IMG/VR virus record: IMGVR_UViG_2563366829_000018
Coordinates: 1 to 36,816 of that record
Source of the DNA: a virus
Taxonomy: Duplodnaviria; Heunggongvirae; Uroviricota; Caudoviricetes
Length of the DNA stretch: 36,816 nucleotides
Reading direction: 5' to 3' (one strand)
Shown in pieces: positions 16,402-24,995 of the stretch. The notes under the pieces were generated by a model that did no database searches, had not been told where the DNA came from, and was given only the letters and a program-made list of their open reading frames with translations. Position 1 is the first letter of the stretch. Every line of letters starts with the position of its first letter. A program made the position numbers and the translations under genes.

Positions 16402-16869
16402 TTATTTCAGGCACTGAGTGCGGATATATTCCTGCGCCACTTCCAGCTGCTTCTGCATCAGCATCAACCGCTCTCTGAGAGTGAAATAATCCCGTTCAGC
16501 GGTGTCTGCCAGTCGGGGGCCGGTTGCATTATCCACGCCGGAGGTGCCGGTGGCTTCACGCACGGTACCGGAGCAGGTGGCGTTGATCCGCAGGCGCTTA
16601 CGACCAGCGGCAACATCAGCACGCAGAGTTTCATTTTCAGCTCTCGCATCGGCTAATTCCCTCGAGTATTTTGCATCGAGCGCAGCAACATCACGCTGAC
16701 GCTGCTGCATGTCAGCGATGGTGGCGTTCGCCTGCTTCAGCTCACTGACTTTTTTATCACGCTGTTCTTTGTAGGCAATGGCGTTATCACGGTAATGATT
16801 GACCGCCCACGACAGGCAGACGATGGTGCAGATAACCAGAGCATAAATAATCGCGGCGACTCTGCTCAC
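16402..16869 (-). CDS. Rz: Spanin inner-membrane subunit Rz
   Basis: GTG start gives [34 protein letters not shown], near-identical to lambda Rz; GTGA overlap with the endolysin stop. Confidence 0.9.
16464..16649 (-). CDS. Rz1: Spanin outer-membrane lipoprotein Rz1, embedded in the +1 frame of Rz
   Basis: [10 protein letters not shown] lipobox and proline-rich [27 protein letters not shown] match lambda Rz1. Confidence 0.85.
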
Positions 16870-17399
16870 TGCTCTATCCCCCAACAGGCTAATGCGCTTT
16901 CCTGGTCACGACGAATAACTTGCCCATAGCAGTTATTTGAACGTATGCGGCAATCGCGCCCACCATCCTTAATCCACCAGCGAATCGCTTCGCATGCCCC
17001 CTTACGATCACCGGCATTCAGCCGCTTATAAAACGTCGACGGGAAACACTTACCGGGGCCAATGTTGTACGGACAGAATGACGCGATCCCCGCTTTCTGG
17101 GGTTCGGTCAGCGGCACTCTGATGTTTTTCTCCACCCACGCCAGCGCTTTATCACGCTCAATGGCGTTAACCTGGTCGCATTTTTCCTTCGACAACTTCA
17201 TGCCCGGAACGACAGGTTTGCCATCCACCATGATGGCACCACGGCAGATGGTCCAGATGCCGGAACCATCGCGGTATGCCGTTGTGTGGTTACCTTCTTT
17301 TTCATCCAGAAACTGGTCGAGAATATCAGGCGCGGGCGCACCGACGGCAATCAGTGCCAGAACGGCAGCCGACAGGCCGTATCTGATTTTTGCGTTCAT
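16866..17399 (-). CDS. R: Endolysin, T4-lysozyme-like (GH24) with an N-terminal signal-arrest-release segment
   Basis: Weakly hydrophobic Gly/Ala-rich N-terminus followed by a lysozyme-like domain; pairs with the S21-type pinholin. Confidence 0.85.
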
Positions 17400-17462
17400 G
17401 GATATTTATCAGGATTTATCGGTTTCTGCCCACGGACAGGTTTATCTGTTCTGGTCAGTGAC

Positions 17463-17813
17463 TTAAGGTTGTGATTCCGGAGGAGTCTTCAGAGAACCAG
17501 TAATTCTTCCTGGTAGCTTTCCTTTGTAGGTTATCCACACATTCTGCGCCTCTAAAATTACGGGGCGCTTTTCCGGCGACTGCTCATCCCCTTCACATAA
17601 CCCGGCAGCAACATCCAGGAAGACCTGTCTGATGCTCCTTCTGGCTGCTGCCTCATAAAACCCCAGCGCGGCACCTTCAACACGGTCCAGCGAGATGTCC
17701 AGGTCAAAAATTTCACCGTCAAAGCGTTTTTTGTCCCGTAACGCTAAAGTTACCGTAACTTTATTCTCAAAATTGCGGATCCCTTTCACAATCAGTTCAT
17801 AGTTTTGAATCAT
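17463..17813 (-). CDS. DUF1327-like protein (YdfR-like) encoded between holin and endolysin
   Basis: 116 aa; same position as ydfR in the Qin prophage lysis cassette; no recognisable catalytic motif. Confidence 0.5.
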   Translation of the reverse strand: MIQNYELIVKGIRNFENKVTVTLALRDKKRFDGEIFDLDISLDRVEGAALGFYEAAARRSIRQVFLDVAAGLCEGDEQSPEKRPVILEAQNVWITYKGKLPGRITGSLKTPPESQP

Positions 17814-17817
17814 TGAA

Positions 17818-18033
17818 TTACTCTCCCCGCGCAGCCTTACGACGGTCCTCTCTGATTTTGAAATACAGGTTAGTCAGATATGTCAGGAAGCCCAGAACCA
17901 GACTCCCCAGTACACCAATCGCAGCCCACTGTGACGGACTGACCTGATCAAGCCACTGTAAAAACCAGTAGCCAGCACTGCCTGCGGAGGTGCCGTAGGC
18001 AATGCCCGTTGAAATTTTATCCATGGATTTCAT
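17818..18033 (-). CDS. S: Pinholin, S21 family, with dual-start motif MKSMDK
   Basis: [71 protein letters not shown] matches phage 21 S; GGAGGTGAGG RBS. Confidence 0.85.
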
Positions 18034-18170
18034 AGCCTCACCTCCGCAGCGAACGGATGGCGTAGTTATAAGGGGAGCGAAAAAGAAAGAATGCGCGATT
18101 GCGCAATATGGTAACGTCAGGGTATTATCCACTGGCTGAATAGATCACTTCACGTTTTTTGTTCCTTGCC

Positions 18171-18434: not shown

Positions 18435-18459
18435 AAAAAAAGGCCCGCAAAAGCGAGCC
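18435..18459 (-). terminator. Intrinsic terminator just downstream of the tRNA cluster (GGCUCGC-UUUU-GCGGGCC followed by UUUUUUU)
   Basis: Read directly on the minus strand. Confidence 0.5.
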
Positions 18460-18473
18460 GGGAAAAATAAGTC

Positions 18474-18550
18474 TGGCGCGTTGTACTGGATTCGAACCAG
18501 TGACCGATTGCTTAGAAGGCAATTGCTCTGTCCGGTTGAGCTAACAACGC
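18474..18550 (-). tRNA. tRNA-Arg, anticodon UCU
   Basis: 77-nt cloverleaf folded by hand: GCGTTGT acceptor, anticodon loop CTTCTAA, TTCGAAT T-loop, encoded CCA. Confidence 0.85.
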
Positions 18551-18563
18551 AGGGTACAGATAA

Positions 18564-18640
18564 TGGACCACCATCGAGGACTCGAACCCCGCGCAACCAG
18601 CTTCGAAGGCTGGTGCTCTATCCTGATGAGCTAATGGCGG
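18564..18640 (-). tRNA. tRNA-Arg, anticodon UCG
   Basis: 77-nt cloverleaf folded by hand: anticodon loop CTTCGAA, TTCGAGT T-loop, encoded CCA. Confidence 0.8.
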
Positions 18641-18647
18641 TATGTGA

Positions 18648-18723
18648 TGGTGGCCCTTGCTGGATTTGAACCAGCGACCTGGCGATTATGAGTCGCTCGC
18701 TCTCACCACTGAGCTAAAGGGCC
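18648..18723 (-). tRNA. tRNA with CAU anticodon, ileX-like (Ile2 via lysidine, or Met)
   Basis: GGCCCTTTAGCTCAGTGGTGAGAGCGAGCGACTCATAATCGCC...CCA closely resembles E. coli ileX. Confidence 0.85.
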
Positions 18724-18751: not shown

Positions 18752-19465
18752 TCAATAATCAAGCCCTTGCCTGGATACATATCTGTCTGGCGGGAAGCCA
18801 TAATAGCGGTGAAATACAGAAATAAAGTAGGACCTGCTTGAATAACCGCATTTTTCTGCTATAGCCTGTCCATATCCATGCCGGGAACATAACATATTTA
18901 CAGCAACACGCATCCGCTCTTCCAGCAACAAGCGACTGAACATGCCCCCTTCATTTTTCAGTTTTGTCTTTAACAAACTCTCACTCATATGCAACTGTAG
19001 AGCAATCGCACCAAGCGTCCAGCTTGCTGATATATCTGTCTGAATTATCGCCCTGACTTTGGCACTTATGCTGGATAAACATCCACTTAAAAACAATGAC
19101 ATCCGTTCATCTGTTTCAAACAGAGACAGGCAGGCCATCATAAGAAACATATCCGTGGCCTCTCCGGAAAATCCCTGGCTGGTAATTAAAGCCGCAGCCA
19201 ACGCAGGATTGTTGGGTTCCAGCAACAGGTAAAGCGGAATGTCAGTCAGACGAGTCCTCGTCAGCTTATGCTGACTTTCCAGATATTGACTTACGACGGA
19301 TTCGCTTATATCGACAATTTTAACTTTGCCATAATGCATAAGGAAAAGCTCCCTGATGCATTTGGTGGCCAGAACAACTGAGCCTGGCTTAAGTGACAAC
19401 GTATCCTTTTCAAGAAAAATATTAATTGGGGAGCAAACCATGATAACTGAACAGACAACAGCCAT
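18752..19465 (-). CDS. AraC-family transcriptional regulator (prophage cargo, PatE-like)
   Basis: C-terminal AraC-type HTH (SESLLKTKLKNEGGMFSRLLLEERMRVAVNML ... GYSSRSYFISVFHRYYGFPP); AT-rich gene; start may be the internal Met at 19441. Confidence 0.75.
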   Translation of the reverse strand: MAVVCSVIMVCSPINIFLEKDTLSLKPGSVVLATKCIRELFLMHYGKVKIVDISESVVSQYLESQHKLTRTRLTDIPLYLLLEPNNPALAAALITSQGFSGEATDMFLMMACLSLFETDERMSLFLSGCLSSISAKVRAIIQTDISASWTLGAIALQLHMSESLLKTKLKNEGGMFSRLLLEERMRVAVNMLCSRHGYGQAIAEKCGYSSRSYFISVFHRYYGFPPDRYVSRQGLDY

Positions 19466-20075: not shown

Positions 20076-20693
20076 TCAATTATCTTCCAGGCCGGATGCT
20101 ATCAACGAAAGCCTCTCAAAAAACGCTGTAGCAGCCTTGTCCAAAGTTGAATAAGTACTGTATTCTCCGTGTTCGGGACCAACCACTACCCATGGTCGTC
20201 TTTTTGGGATTCGGGACTTCTCAGAAATCACTGTTCCAGATATACCAATATCAATTGTTACACCTGTTATTATTTTCTCTTCATCTCTTTCCCTGAACTC
20301 AATTGCCATAAATGCCGTTTTTTTTCGTTTCCCGTTTTTAAAAAAATCAAATAAAGCAAAGCGATGCTCATTAAAATCAACACCCCATCGTCCTTCAGGA
20401 TAAAGGGCATGAAAGTTGTCATTTACGCTCTGCATCGTCTCATAAGCTTTAACTTCTAAATCTCCATAGTGCATAGATACCGCGCAGGAGTCACTGGGTA
20501 ACTGTATTTTCCCAAGATTGAAAACCTTTACTGCTCCAGAACTATGGCATCTTGCCCGCAATTTATCCCCATTTATACTAATCGGAGAAATATTCCTTAA
20601 TGTTCCGGGCTGGCTCCCTCCTAAGTAAACGACTGTTAAAGATTGCTTATTTTCAATTGCATCAACTAATACATGCTCTACATTTTTATCCAT
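20076..20693 (-). CDS. Hypothetical protein (205 aa), AT-rich cargo gene immediately downstream of Q
   Basis: Strong RBS GGGAGG 6 nt upstream of ATG (MDKNVEHV); no domain recognisable by eye. Confidence 0.6.
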   Translation of the reverse strand: MDKNVEHVLVDAIENKQSLTVVYLGGSQPGTLRNISPISINGDKLRARCHSSGAVKVFNLGKIQLPSDSCAVSMHYGDLEVKAYETMQSVNDNFHALYPEGRWGVDFNEHRFALFDFFKNGKRKKTAFMAIEFRERDEEKIITGVTIDIGISGTVISEKSRIPKRRPWVVVGPEHGEYSTYSTLDKAATAFFERLSLIASGLEDN

Positions 20694-20768
20694 AATAACC
20701 TCCCAATGAACAGGTATCATCAGGAGGTTATAATAAAATATGATTATTTACTTTGATTGAATTTATTA

Positions 20769-21140
20769 CTATATGTAACAATCAATTTCTAAAGATACCC
20801 CCAACATTGCCAGACAACCGTCAATAAACCCTTCAGCTTTCTGCAGTCTGATAACAACCTGATTAAGTGATATCCCCAGTTTTACCCCCAACACCCGTAA
20901 TGTAACCCCATACACATAATACATTTCCAGTAATTCGTATTGATACGGTTCCTTTTTCTTAAGAACTGTCATCGCAGAGCTAATGATCAGGCCATCGTCA
21001 TCGCTACATTGCGGGCGGGATTTTACTTTCGAAGGAATTAATCCCTTAAAACCTGCAGCAACAGATGACCATTCCACATCCTCGTGATTATTTGCCACCC
21101 ATGCCCCCCAACGTTCAAGAACCATTTGAATATCACGCAT
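20769..21140 (-). CDS. Q: Late-gene antiterminator Q (QuuD/phage-82 type)
   Basis: MRDIQMVLERWGAWVANNHEDVEWSSVAAGFKGL matches the QuuD-family N-terminus as I recall it; GGAG RBS; position upstream of the lysis module. Confidence 0.75.
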   Translation of the reverse strand: MRDIQMVLERWGAWVANNHEDVEWSSVAAGFKGLIPSKVKSRPQCSDDDGLIISSAMTVLKKKEPYQYELLEMYYVYGVTLRVLGVKLGISLNQVVIRLQKAEGFIDGCLAMLGVSLEIDCYI

Positions 21141-21157
21141 CAACTTTCTCCACAAAA

Positions 21158-23851: not shown

Positions 23852-24501
23852 GCCGCCATCTCCCTGACCAGTTTTTCCGCCTGCTGGCGAACCTGCGCCA
23901 GAAACGCCTCACCACATGCCTCAAGTTCATCGCGCCCTATGTAGCTGATTGCCGGTCCCTTCCAGGTCTTGTCGAAAACAGCAATAGCACCAGCGAAGAA
24001 AGCACCTGTTGGCACCTGCTTTTCGTCTTTCGGGATAAACCAGGCAGGCAGTTCAAAACCAATACGCCCGCGAATAAAAGCAATATGATCTGCATCTTCC
24101 GGCCACCACACTTCGCTGGTGGCAGCTTTGATCAGGAAAACATAGCGCCCGCCTTTATCACGCATGGCACTGGCATGTTTCATGATGTAACGCATGCCGG
24201 TGATGTATTGCCCCTCATGCTGACTGGCGCGGCTGTACGGGGGATTACCAAAGGCAGCACCTTTAAGCTCCGCAAGACGTTCAGACCAGTCATGCGCCAG
24301 CGCGTTGTCTTCCGCAGTGTAATACGCAGCACATTTGGCGTTATCACCGTCAGTGAACAGATCCAGAACAAACGGGCCAAACAGGGTGTTAATTCCCCAG
24401 AAAATGTTGTCCGGCGTGCGCCACTGATCGCCCACTTCCTTCAGTTCATGGGCTGGTTTGTTCCGCAGTTCCACCAGCGCCTGGCAATATTTATTACTCA
24501 T
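23848..24501 (-). CDS. Phage DNA N6-adenine methyltransferase (Dam-like), orphan
   Basis: NPPY catalytic motif (FGNPPYSRAS); no adjacent restriction gene; start set at MSNKYCQ. Confidence 0.8.
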   Translation of the reverse strand: MSNKYCQALVELRNKPAHELKEVGDQWRTPDNIFWGINTLFGPFVLDLFTDGDNAKCAAYYTAEDNALAHDWSERLAELKGAAFGNPPYSRASQHEGQYITGMRYIMKHASAMRDKGGRYVFLIKAATSEVWWPEDADHIAFIRGRIGFELPAWFIPKDEKQVPTGAFFAGAIAVFDKTWKGPAISYIGRDELEACGEAFLAQVRQQAEKLVREMAA

Positions 24502-24995
24502 TAAGCCCCCACGAAATTCCCTGACAGATACCACTCTTCACCCGATGCAGCGCGCTTGCTGCTTTTCCGTAAGCACCGCTCACGACGTGCCAGAAAATTG
24601 TTTCGTTCTGGCTGGGAGTGGCTTTCACGGAATGCCGCCATCCACACCGTTGCAGCACGACGGTATAAGCCCCTGGACTCCAGTTCTTCAGCCTGGCGGG
24701 TCAGGCACAAAATCACACGGGGATCGTTAGTGCCGACATAGAAATTGCGCACAGGTCTGGTTTCACGAACTGGTTGTGGTTCCGGATCCTGCGCTCTCTC
24801 AGTCAGGCGTGGGAAATGTCTGCGTGTATCTCCTTCACAACGGTGAGCCACACGCCCACTCTGACGTAACTTGCTTGCTGACTGCAGAACGCGCTGCCGT
24901 GAGTAACCAGCAAAAGCATCCGCAATGTCTCCGGAAGTACAGCCCGGATGGGCTTCAATGAATTTCTGAACTTCATTCAAAAGACTCATGATCAC
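24501..24995 (-). CDS. Hypothetical protein with a PerC-like C-terminal region
   Basis: LESRGLYRRAATVWMAAF resembles the PerC/Pch signature (GLWRRAA..W); ATGA coupling with the upstream gene. Confidence 0.45.
   Translation of the reverse strand: MIMSLLNEVQKFIEAHPGCTSGDIADAFAGYSRQRVLQSASKLRQSGRVAHRCEGDTRRHFPRLTERAQDPEPQPVRETRPVRNFYVGTNDPRVILCLTRQAEELESRGLYRRAATVWMAAFRESHSQPERNNFLARRERCLRKSSKRAASGEEWYLSGNFVGA

Follow-up and report, generated by a model that had tools for sequence, protein, structure and literature searches.

What does a gene of the ydfR family do between the holin and lysozyme genes of a lambdoid prophage, and does lysis depend on it? The question is raised by a 36,816-nucleotide (nt) stretch of DNA, IMG/VR virus record IMGVR_UViG_2563366829_000018 (hereafter the window, in which all positions are counted), which is a lambdoid prophage of Escherichia coli. 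An original prediction, made from the letters of the sequence, had described at positions 17463-18033 a pinholin and signal-arrest-release (SAR) endolysin system of the phage 21 kind, interrupted by a 116-amino-acid (aa) DUF1327-like open reading frame (ORF) as in the Qin prophage, and had suggested that this ORF may modulate lysis timing. The gene set and coordinates are as it described: holin, ydfR ORF and lysozyme all lie on the minus strand, and the limits 17463 and 18033 are exactly the final stop-codon base of that ORF and the holin start. A role in lysis timing is unsupported by what follows. The reading that we favor, tentatively, is that YdfR would be a cytoplasmic accessory protein, made late and dispensable, which uses its folded domain to bind a host factor; RNase E is the leading candidate.

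ydfR Sits in a Late-Operon Lysis Cassette

Several human E. coli chromosomes contain the 2-kb stretch around the lysis genes at 100% identity, and one of them is annotated in RefSeq with head, tail, terminase, lysis and Q-region genes. The block itself is a late-operon lysis cassette, made up of pinholin S21, an RrrQ/933W-R-like lysozyme of SAR type, the spanins Rz and Rz1, and ydfR, and we regard the identity of these parts as near certain. Its features are as follows.

17818-18033, minus strand: pinholin/antipinholin gene S21, 71 aa (PF04971 and identity to phage 21 S21-71)
17463-17813, minus strand: ydfR-family gene (DUF1327), 116 aa (PF07041, phrog_406)
17400-17462, minus strand: untranslated spacer between ydfR and the lysozyme gene, 63 nt (read from the sequence)
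16866-17399, minus strand: SAR-type endolysin of the RrrQ/933W-R type, 177 aa (PF00959, R21 structure alignment, N-terminal composition)
17328-17381, minus strand: predicted SAR segment, about lysozyme residues 7-24 (sequence composition)
16402-16869, minus strand: i-spanin Rz (PF03245, E 2.5e-49)
16464-16649, minus strand: o-spanin lipoprotein Rz1, within Rz in another frame (PF06085, E 3.5e-21)

A search with hidden Markov models matched the 116-aa ORF to PF07041 (DUF1327; E 3.9e-41, 139.6 bits with a cut-off of 25), which turns the suspected likeness into family membership. RefSeq names the product 'YdfR family protein', and its best PHROG is phrog_406, of function unknown. The parallel with Qin is equally real, since the order there is essQ, 4 nt, ydfR, rrrQ and rzpQ/rzoQ. 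YdfR of the K-12 Qin prophage (b1555, P76160) belongs to the same family, is likewise encoded between an S21-type holin, whose gene ends 4 nt ahead of it, and a 177-aa lysozyme, and shares 78% identity (58/74) with the window protein over residues 1-74. The C-terminal parts are unrelated: K-12 YdfR has EKLSEKVESYLQHQYSFKIENPANKHERPHHKYL, with a stop codon overlapping the rrrQ start, whereas the window protein ends in GLCEGDEQSPEKRPVILEAQNVWITYKGKLPGRITGSLKTPPESQP and is followed by the 63-nt spacer. The insertion is therefore already known, having been annotated since the K-12 genome, and the term DUF1327 appears in the literature in one paper only, in passing.

The ydfR ATG lies 4 nt past the holin stop, and its Shine-Dalgarno sequence, GGGGAGAG (17821-17828), is contained in the last holin codons. 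The 4-nt junction and the same gene order recur in 107/107 Escherichia-type loci, which are close relatives, 80 of them picked as best matches, and the ORF is intact in all related loci examined. Pairwise ratios of nonsynonymous to synonymous substitution (dN/dS) at the same loci are 0.33-0.37 for ydfR, while the holin has 0.11 and the lysozyme 0.07; ydfR is a real gene under purifying selection. Because the order recurs in every one of these loci and the ORF is under purifying selection, the holin-ydfR-lysozyme arrangement is far beyond chance. No promoter-like or terminator-like site was found on the minus strand within 16866-18033, the holin-ydfR-lysozyme unit, and an internal promoter or terminator was rejected on this basis. 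Since its ribosome-binding site (RBS) lies in the end of the holin gene, the unit contains no internal promoter or terminator and the Q antiterminator gene is upstream, we take ydfR to be expressed late, alongside the lysis proteins, as part of the Q-dependent transcript.

The family is small in membership and narrow in host range. With the 351-base ydfR sequence as query, the gene was found in 4104/5426 complete E. coli genomes (76%), in up to 8 copies each, and a protein search found it in 101 phage records, all of them Escherichia or Stx-converting (Shiga toxin-converting) phages; the late operons that bear it include those of Stx1a and Stx2c converting phages. Among 1.84 billion representative proteins, searched exhaustively with HMMER, 64 DUF1327 members were found at E <= 0.001. 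A scan of one genome per species found ydfR in Escherichia and Shigella only, plus two metagenome bins labeled Veillonella parvula and Bacillota bacterium (L006 and L008). These bins hold an E. coli-type holin-ydfR-lysozyme cassette, with holins 83-92% and lysozymes 91-92% identical to those of the window, and are most likely the result of binning contamination.

Presence in three quarters of the complete genomes, including copies in cryptic prophages such as Qin, could suggest a lysogenic-conversion or defence gene that benefits the host apart from the lytic cycle, and expression databases reportedly show cold-stress induction of the Qin cluster (PMC13232886). We consider such a function highly improbable. 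No promoter of its own was found for ydfR, no PADLOC defence family matches YdfR at E up to 0.01, the gene always lies within Q-dependent late operons, and almost no RNA-seq reads were seen in K-12 under standard growth (PMC13232886).

The Holin and Lysozyme Have the Sequence Features of a Pinholin and SAR-Endolysin Pair

The holin is identical at 71/71 residues to S21-71 of Escherichia phage 21 (OL657228), and a Pfam profile search aligns it with PF04971, 'Bacteriophage P21 holin S', over 63/64 profile positions (E 8.6e-36); no NCBIfam model matches it. The pinholin call, first made from the N-terminal motif MKSMDK, is thus carried by 100% identity to the phage 21 protein and not by the motif alone. 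The gene has a dual start, giving S21-71 from Met1 at 18033 and S21-68 from Met4 at 18024, and OL657228 annotates the antipinholin S21-71 and the pinholin S21-68 on the identical dual-start sequence. Lys2, the mark of the antiholin form, is present, and a Shine-Dalgarno sequence, GGAGG, lies at about 18041-18045. The second transmembrane domain (TMD2, residues 36-54) is strongly hydrophobic, with a Kyte-Doolittle mean of 1.72, while the TMD1 region (residues 8-27) is weakly hydrophobic (about 0.2-0.3) and rich in Gly, Ala and Ser. From its identity with S21, the holin would be expected to form small, membrane-depolarising pinholes. S21-family holins of four other loci (L022, L044, L098 and L103) and of phage 933W (L113 4831-5046) start with MDQME or MYQME, not MKSMD; they retain the Met1/Met4 dual start, with Lys2 replaced by Asp or Tyr.

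The lysozyme has a T4-type domain (PF00959, E 8.8e-24) and aligns with the phage 21 SAR endolysin structures 3HDE and 3HDF, two crystal forms, at E 2e-15, with the catalytic triad E35/D44/T50 (R21 numbering; Glu-8x-Asp-5x-Thr) in register. Its identity is 92% to Qin RrrQ, 90% to 933W R and 30% to R21. The N-terminus carries K4 and R6 followed by a 17-residue, weakly hydrophobic segment (Kyte-Doolittle mean 1.3-1.9) in which 9/17 residues are Gly, Ala or Ser, and cleavage by signal peptidase would be unlikely, given the Pro after the sole small-x-small motif. This is the sequence signature of a SAR segment, from which export and release are predicted, and together with the R21-type triad it bears out the SAR-endolysin call at the level of sequence features. 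In a survey of 279 Stx phages, lysozymes of this family were predicted to be SAR endolysins and were paired with a pinholin in 99%; Stx phages and their lambdoid relatives usually rely on this combination for lysis (PMC8136144).

The spanin genes follow. Rz probably starts with GTG at 16869, overlapping the lysozyme stop by 4 nt (a mechanical ORF listing starts it at TTG 16884), and a 155-aa Rz with the same 4-nt overlap is present in loci L098-L104. In the identical RefSeq locus, Rz1 is annotated as 'Rz1 family lipoprotein'.

Is ydfR Needed for Lysis?

We compared this cassette with those of phages that have no ydfR. Phage 21 (S21-R21-Rz-Rz1) shares with the window the identical holin with its Met1/Met4 start, the lysozyme triad, a SAR-type segment and a spanin pair behind them, but its holin gene abuts that of the SAR endolysin R21 without ydfR, and the window lysozyme, less than a third identical to R21, is 12 residues longer. 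The Stx phage 933W (S-R-(ant)-Rz) has a 78%-identical holin and the same 4-nt spacer past the holin stop, followed directly by its 90%-identical lysozyme, which starts where ydfR starts in the window. It also has a tRNA trio upstream, ileZ-argN-argO, in the same layout as in the window, and differs further in carrying ant between R and Rz and stx upstream. The direct holin-lysozyme junction without ydfR is contiguous in 237 phage records, compared with the 101 phage records that have ydfR, and was found in up to 995 genomes; the essD-rrrD cassette of DLP12 also has no ydfR. Because the direct junction is contiguous in so many phage records and genomes, ydfR shows a presence/absence polymorphism in the homologous cassettes that viable phages carry. 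That natural phages with the same lysis genes lack ydfR indicates that lysis does not require it. Conservation across related prophages, on which the original prediction had let the matter hang, is therefore divided: the ORF is missing from some cassettes and present in others.

Relatives outside the Escherichia-type loci point in the same direction with respect to position. One distant homologue lies between tail genes I and J (L106 4001-4285, 36% identity), a second between tail genes M and L (L107 449-667, 30% identity) and a third directly after Rz (L108 503-718, 50% identity). Judged by its tail protein L (75% identical), the contig of the second belongs to a phi80-like siphophage, and a megablast of the first against phages gave no match. 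In the wider family, the DUF1327 domain thus appears to be a movable late-operon gene. Unrelated genes are known to land in the lysis cassettes of these phages; examples are ant, located between R and Rz in 933W, and bor, located after Rz.

Could YdfR nevertheless set the timing of lysis where it is present? As a cytoplasmic regulator, it might delay or sharpen triggering by binding either the pinholin, at its conserved cytoplasmic C-terminal tail, or the SAR endolysin in its tethered state. Its fixed position 4 nt past the holin stop in all 107 loci is in keeping with this, as is the distant homologue that is still in a lysis cassette, just after Rz. Precedent for soluble timing regulators exists: in P1, lydB follows lydA and antagonises it, and T4 RIII is another soluble antiholin. 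YdfR would resemble LydB and RIII, by analogy only, in being a small non-membrane protein encoded beside the holin gene, but it matches no lysis-category profile. P1 LydB is termed an antiholin in PMC9025707. The holin tail, YFKI(R/K)ED(R/K)RKAARGE, is near-invariant across ydfR-linked alleles, so that the absence of co-variation leaves binding there possible. In addition, two supplementary lists of Paradis-Bleau 2014 give the Keio deletion of ydfR as positive in the chlorophenol red-beta-D-galactopyranoside (CPRG) assay.

Against a timing role stands, first, that the identical S21 works in phage 21 without ydfR and that 933W and the 237 phage records join the holin directly to the lysozyme. 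Distant homologues reside in tail clusters, YdfR is without a membrane segment (its highest 19-residue Kyte-Doolittle mean is 0.69), and it shows no homology to lysis regulators, with no lysis-category PHROG or Pfam match and PHROG matches of unknown function only. Near-identical ydfR alleles accompany holin alleles whose identity is 79, 86 or 99-100% and whose N-termini are MKSMD, MDQME or MYQME, and for this reason we see no sign of ydfR-holin co-evolution; as ydfR accompanies Lys2 and Asp2/Tyr2 holins alike, it does not seem to compensate for a missing antiholin charge. The Keio phenotype would be explained equally by read-through from the kanamycin cassette into rrrQ, and overproduction of YdfR in K-12, which has essQ and rrrQ, was without effect on growth (PMC13232886). 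Altogether, we regard a lysis-timing function, by analogy with soluble antiholins, as doubtful.

YdfR Combines a Compact Domain with an Exchangeable Tail

YdfR, which has a net charge of 0, divides into two parts.

17592-17813, minus strand: conserved N-terminal domain, residues 1-74 (AlphaFold2 model, conservation)
17466-17591, minus strand: variable C-terminal tail, residues 75-116, predicted disordered (predicted local distance difference test, pLDDT; alignments)

The full-length AlphaFold2 model is confident only in residues 5-74, with pLDDT <50 for residues 74-116. A model of residues 1-76, built from a more diverse alignment, reached a mean pLDDT of 91.4 and a predicted TM-score (pTM) of 0.78. 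The modeled fold is beta-beta-beta-alpha, with antiparallel strands at residues 5-14, 18-27 and 34-43 and a long helix at 50-71, and the invariant residues are E6, L7, G47, Y53, E54, A57, A69 and L72. When YdfR was searched by sequence against all PDB chains, there was no match, even with E as high as 10. Foldseek gave no hit among viral predicted structures at E <= 0.001, the modeled domain showed no significant structural relative, and no NCBIfam model matches the protein.

In contrast to the domain, the tail varies by whole blocks. At least four unrelated tail types stand behind the same N-terminal domain (alignments A1 and A2 and the loci; P0020, P0044, P0128), among them short ends (ESQP, KW, EF), a 60-70-residue helical extension, the K-12 type and others. 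The middle segment PEKRPIILEAQNVWITYKGKLPGRITGSLKTPP (PEKRP...SLKTPP) is found as well at the end of P0143, whose N-terminus is different and coiled-coil-like.

RNase E Is the Leading Candidate for a Host Partner

The only experiments on the YdfR family come from a 2026 study of RNase E partners, in which a two-hybrid screen yielded the initial 72 codons of K-12 ydfR three times (PMC13232886). Full-length K-12 YdfR gave a signal with Rne 1-597, FLAG-tagged Rne 1-598 co-eluted with Strep-YdfR, and DNase-resistant nucleic acid was co-purified (PMC13232886). Within K-12 YdfR, the reported RNase E-binding part (PMC13232886) corresponds to the N-terminal domain of the window protein. It is because this interacting part is the domain shared at 78% identity that we favor a host factor, and RNase E in particular, as the target.

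We propose that YdfR would be a small soluble cytoplasmic protein in which residues 1-74 form a compact beta-beta-beta-alpha binding domain, followed by a tail that is disordered and exchangeable. It would stand outside the working pinholin/SAR-endolysin pathway as a moron-like gene product placed in the late operon, and would bind a host cytoplasmic factor late in infection. Were RNase E bound at its catalytic N-terminal half, possibly together with RNA, the phage could in this way adjust RNA decay late in its cycle. T4 Srd, phiKZ Dip and T7 gp0.7 act on RNase E, and YdfR would likewise be a phage-borne RNase E binder if the K-12 result carries over; among host proteins, the adaptor RapZ binds the catalytic N-terminal half of RNase E, as YdfR would (PMC13232886). 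Taken as a whole, the picture of a dispensable cytoplasmic late accessory protein that binds a host factor, RNase E being the foremost candidate, is a possible one that we hold tentatively.

Several points weigh against it. The RNase E result was obtained with the K-12 orthologue and not with the window protein, and it comprises one screen and one co-purification. Overproduction of YdfR changed few transcripts and caused no growth defect, and a contaminant is, according to the authors, possible as the carrier of the RNA (PMC13232886). Within Escherichia, ydfR is found only between holin and lysozyme, a placement that fits a lysis role as well as it fits simple descent, and the tail-cluster homologues are single metagenomic contigs. 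Finally, the Keio ydfR deletion is envelope-leaky in the supplementary lists of Paradis-Bleau 2014, which could mean that YdfR restrains lysis. As proof of such restraint we rejected this hit as ambiguous, since the cassette promoter would read into rrrQ.

It is also conceivable, if rather unlikely, that YdfR represents an unrecognised kind of phage late protein. It might then dock on the catalytic half of RNase E, perhaps with RNA held by a sheet-and-helix surface like that of a double-stranded RNA-binding domain, and reshape RNA decay in the final minutes of infection, or it might be a soluble regulator of the pinholin or SAR endolysin that is unrelated to known antiholins.

The Junction with the Lysozyme Gene

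The DNA around ydfR raises the further possibility that the insertion acts in cis. In 933W, the lysozyme ATG uses the GGGGAGAG-TAA-4 nt-ATG site that ydfR uses in the window, so the insertion takes over the holin-proximal RBS and endolysin translation might be lowered or uncoupled from that of the holin. In the window, the lysozyme start follows the 63-nt spacer, in which no recognisable Shine-Dalgarno sequence lies ahead of the ATG, and the overlap of the Qin ydfR stop with the rrrQ start indicates that arrangements vary among prophages. On the other side, purifying selection on ydfR and the confident fold imply that the protein itself is maintained. The spacer is without significant structure, its length varies widely among loci while the cassette is retained, and AU-rich leaders can still be translated. 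We therefore consider an effect purely in cis very unlikely to account for the gene, and retain a protein that binds a host factor as the preferred reading.

RNA structure in the spacer was examined as a candidate and rejected, the fold being no better than shuffled sequences (z -0.34). A motif before the lysozyme ATG, ATAAATATC(C/T)ATGAAC, is common to the window and Qin, where it codes for the end of ydfR; this shared motif points to a possible history of recombination or deletion at the ydfR-lysozyme junction. In other prophages, the gap between ydfR and the lysozyme gene is 320-870 nt, in some cases with antisense ORFs of 86-90 aa (L090, L098).

Genes Upstream of the Lysis Block

The following features lie upstream of the lysis genes.

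20769-21155, minus strand: Q antiterminator gene
20076-20720, minus strand: 214-aa ORF without a Pfam family, starting 49 nt after the Q antiterminator gene
18752-19465, minus strand: AraC-family regulator, 237 aa (PF00165/PF12833)
18474-18723, minus strand: three tRNA genes (ARAGORN: Met(CAT), Arg(TCG), Arg(TCT))

The 214-aa ORF has a weak WYL-domain match in PADLOC (E 1.2e-3). For the AraC-family ORF, the nearest models are YdeO and GadX, with scores far under their cut-offs, and we take it to resemble the prophage-encoded AraC-like regulators of enterohaemorrhagic E. coli. It lies between Q and the tRNA and lysis genes, which is the slot of stx in Stx phages, and a 243-aa counterpart occupies the same slot in loci L090-L097. 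The first tRNA of the trio is annotated as Ile in RefSeq and would then be a lysidine-type tRNA; a terminator-like hairpin at 18442-18459 follows the trio on the same strand. In the early region, a 164-aa ORF (24501-24995, minus strand) contains a PerC transcriptional-activator domain (PF06069, E 7.9e-9) and adjoins genes for a Dam methylase, a protein with a LexA DNA-binding domain and RusA.

Implications

The lysis block adds nothing new in itself, its layout being known and annotated, and the case of ydfR is a reason for a simple deletion experiment and no evidence of a new system. What gives the gene its interest is the distribution of DUF1327, a tiny family confined to Escherichia and Shigella that is nevertheless present in 76% of complete E. 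coli genomes and in the late operons of many inducible phages. If YdfR alters RNA decay or lysis timing, there could be consequences for phage burst and, in the case of Stx phages, for toxin release. Should RNase E docking or a soluble regulation of lysis prove true, a function could be assigned to a gene that three quarters of E. coli genomes carry.
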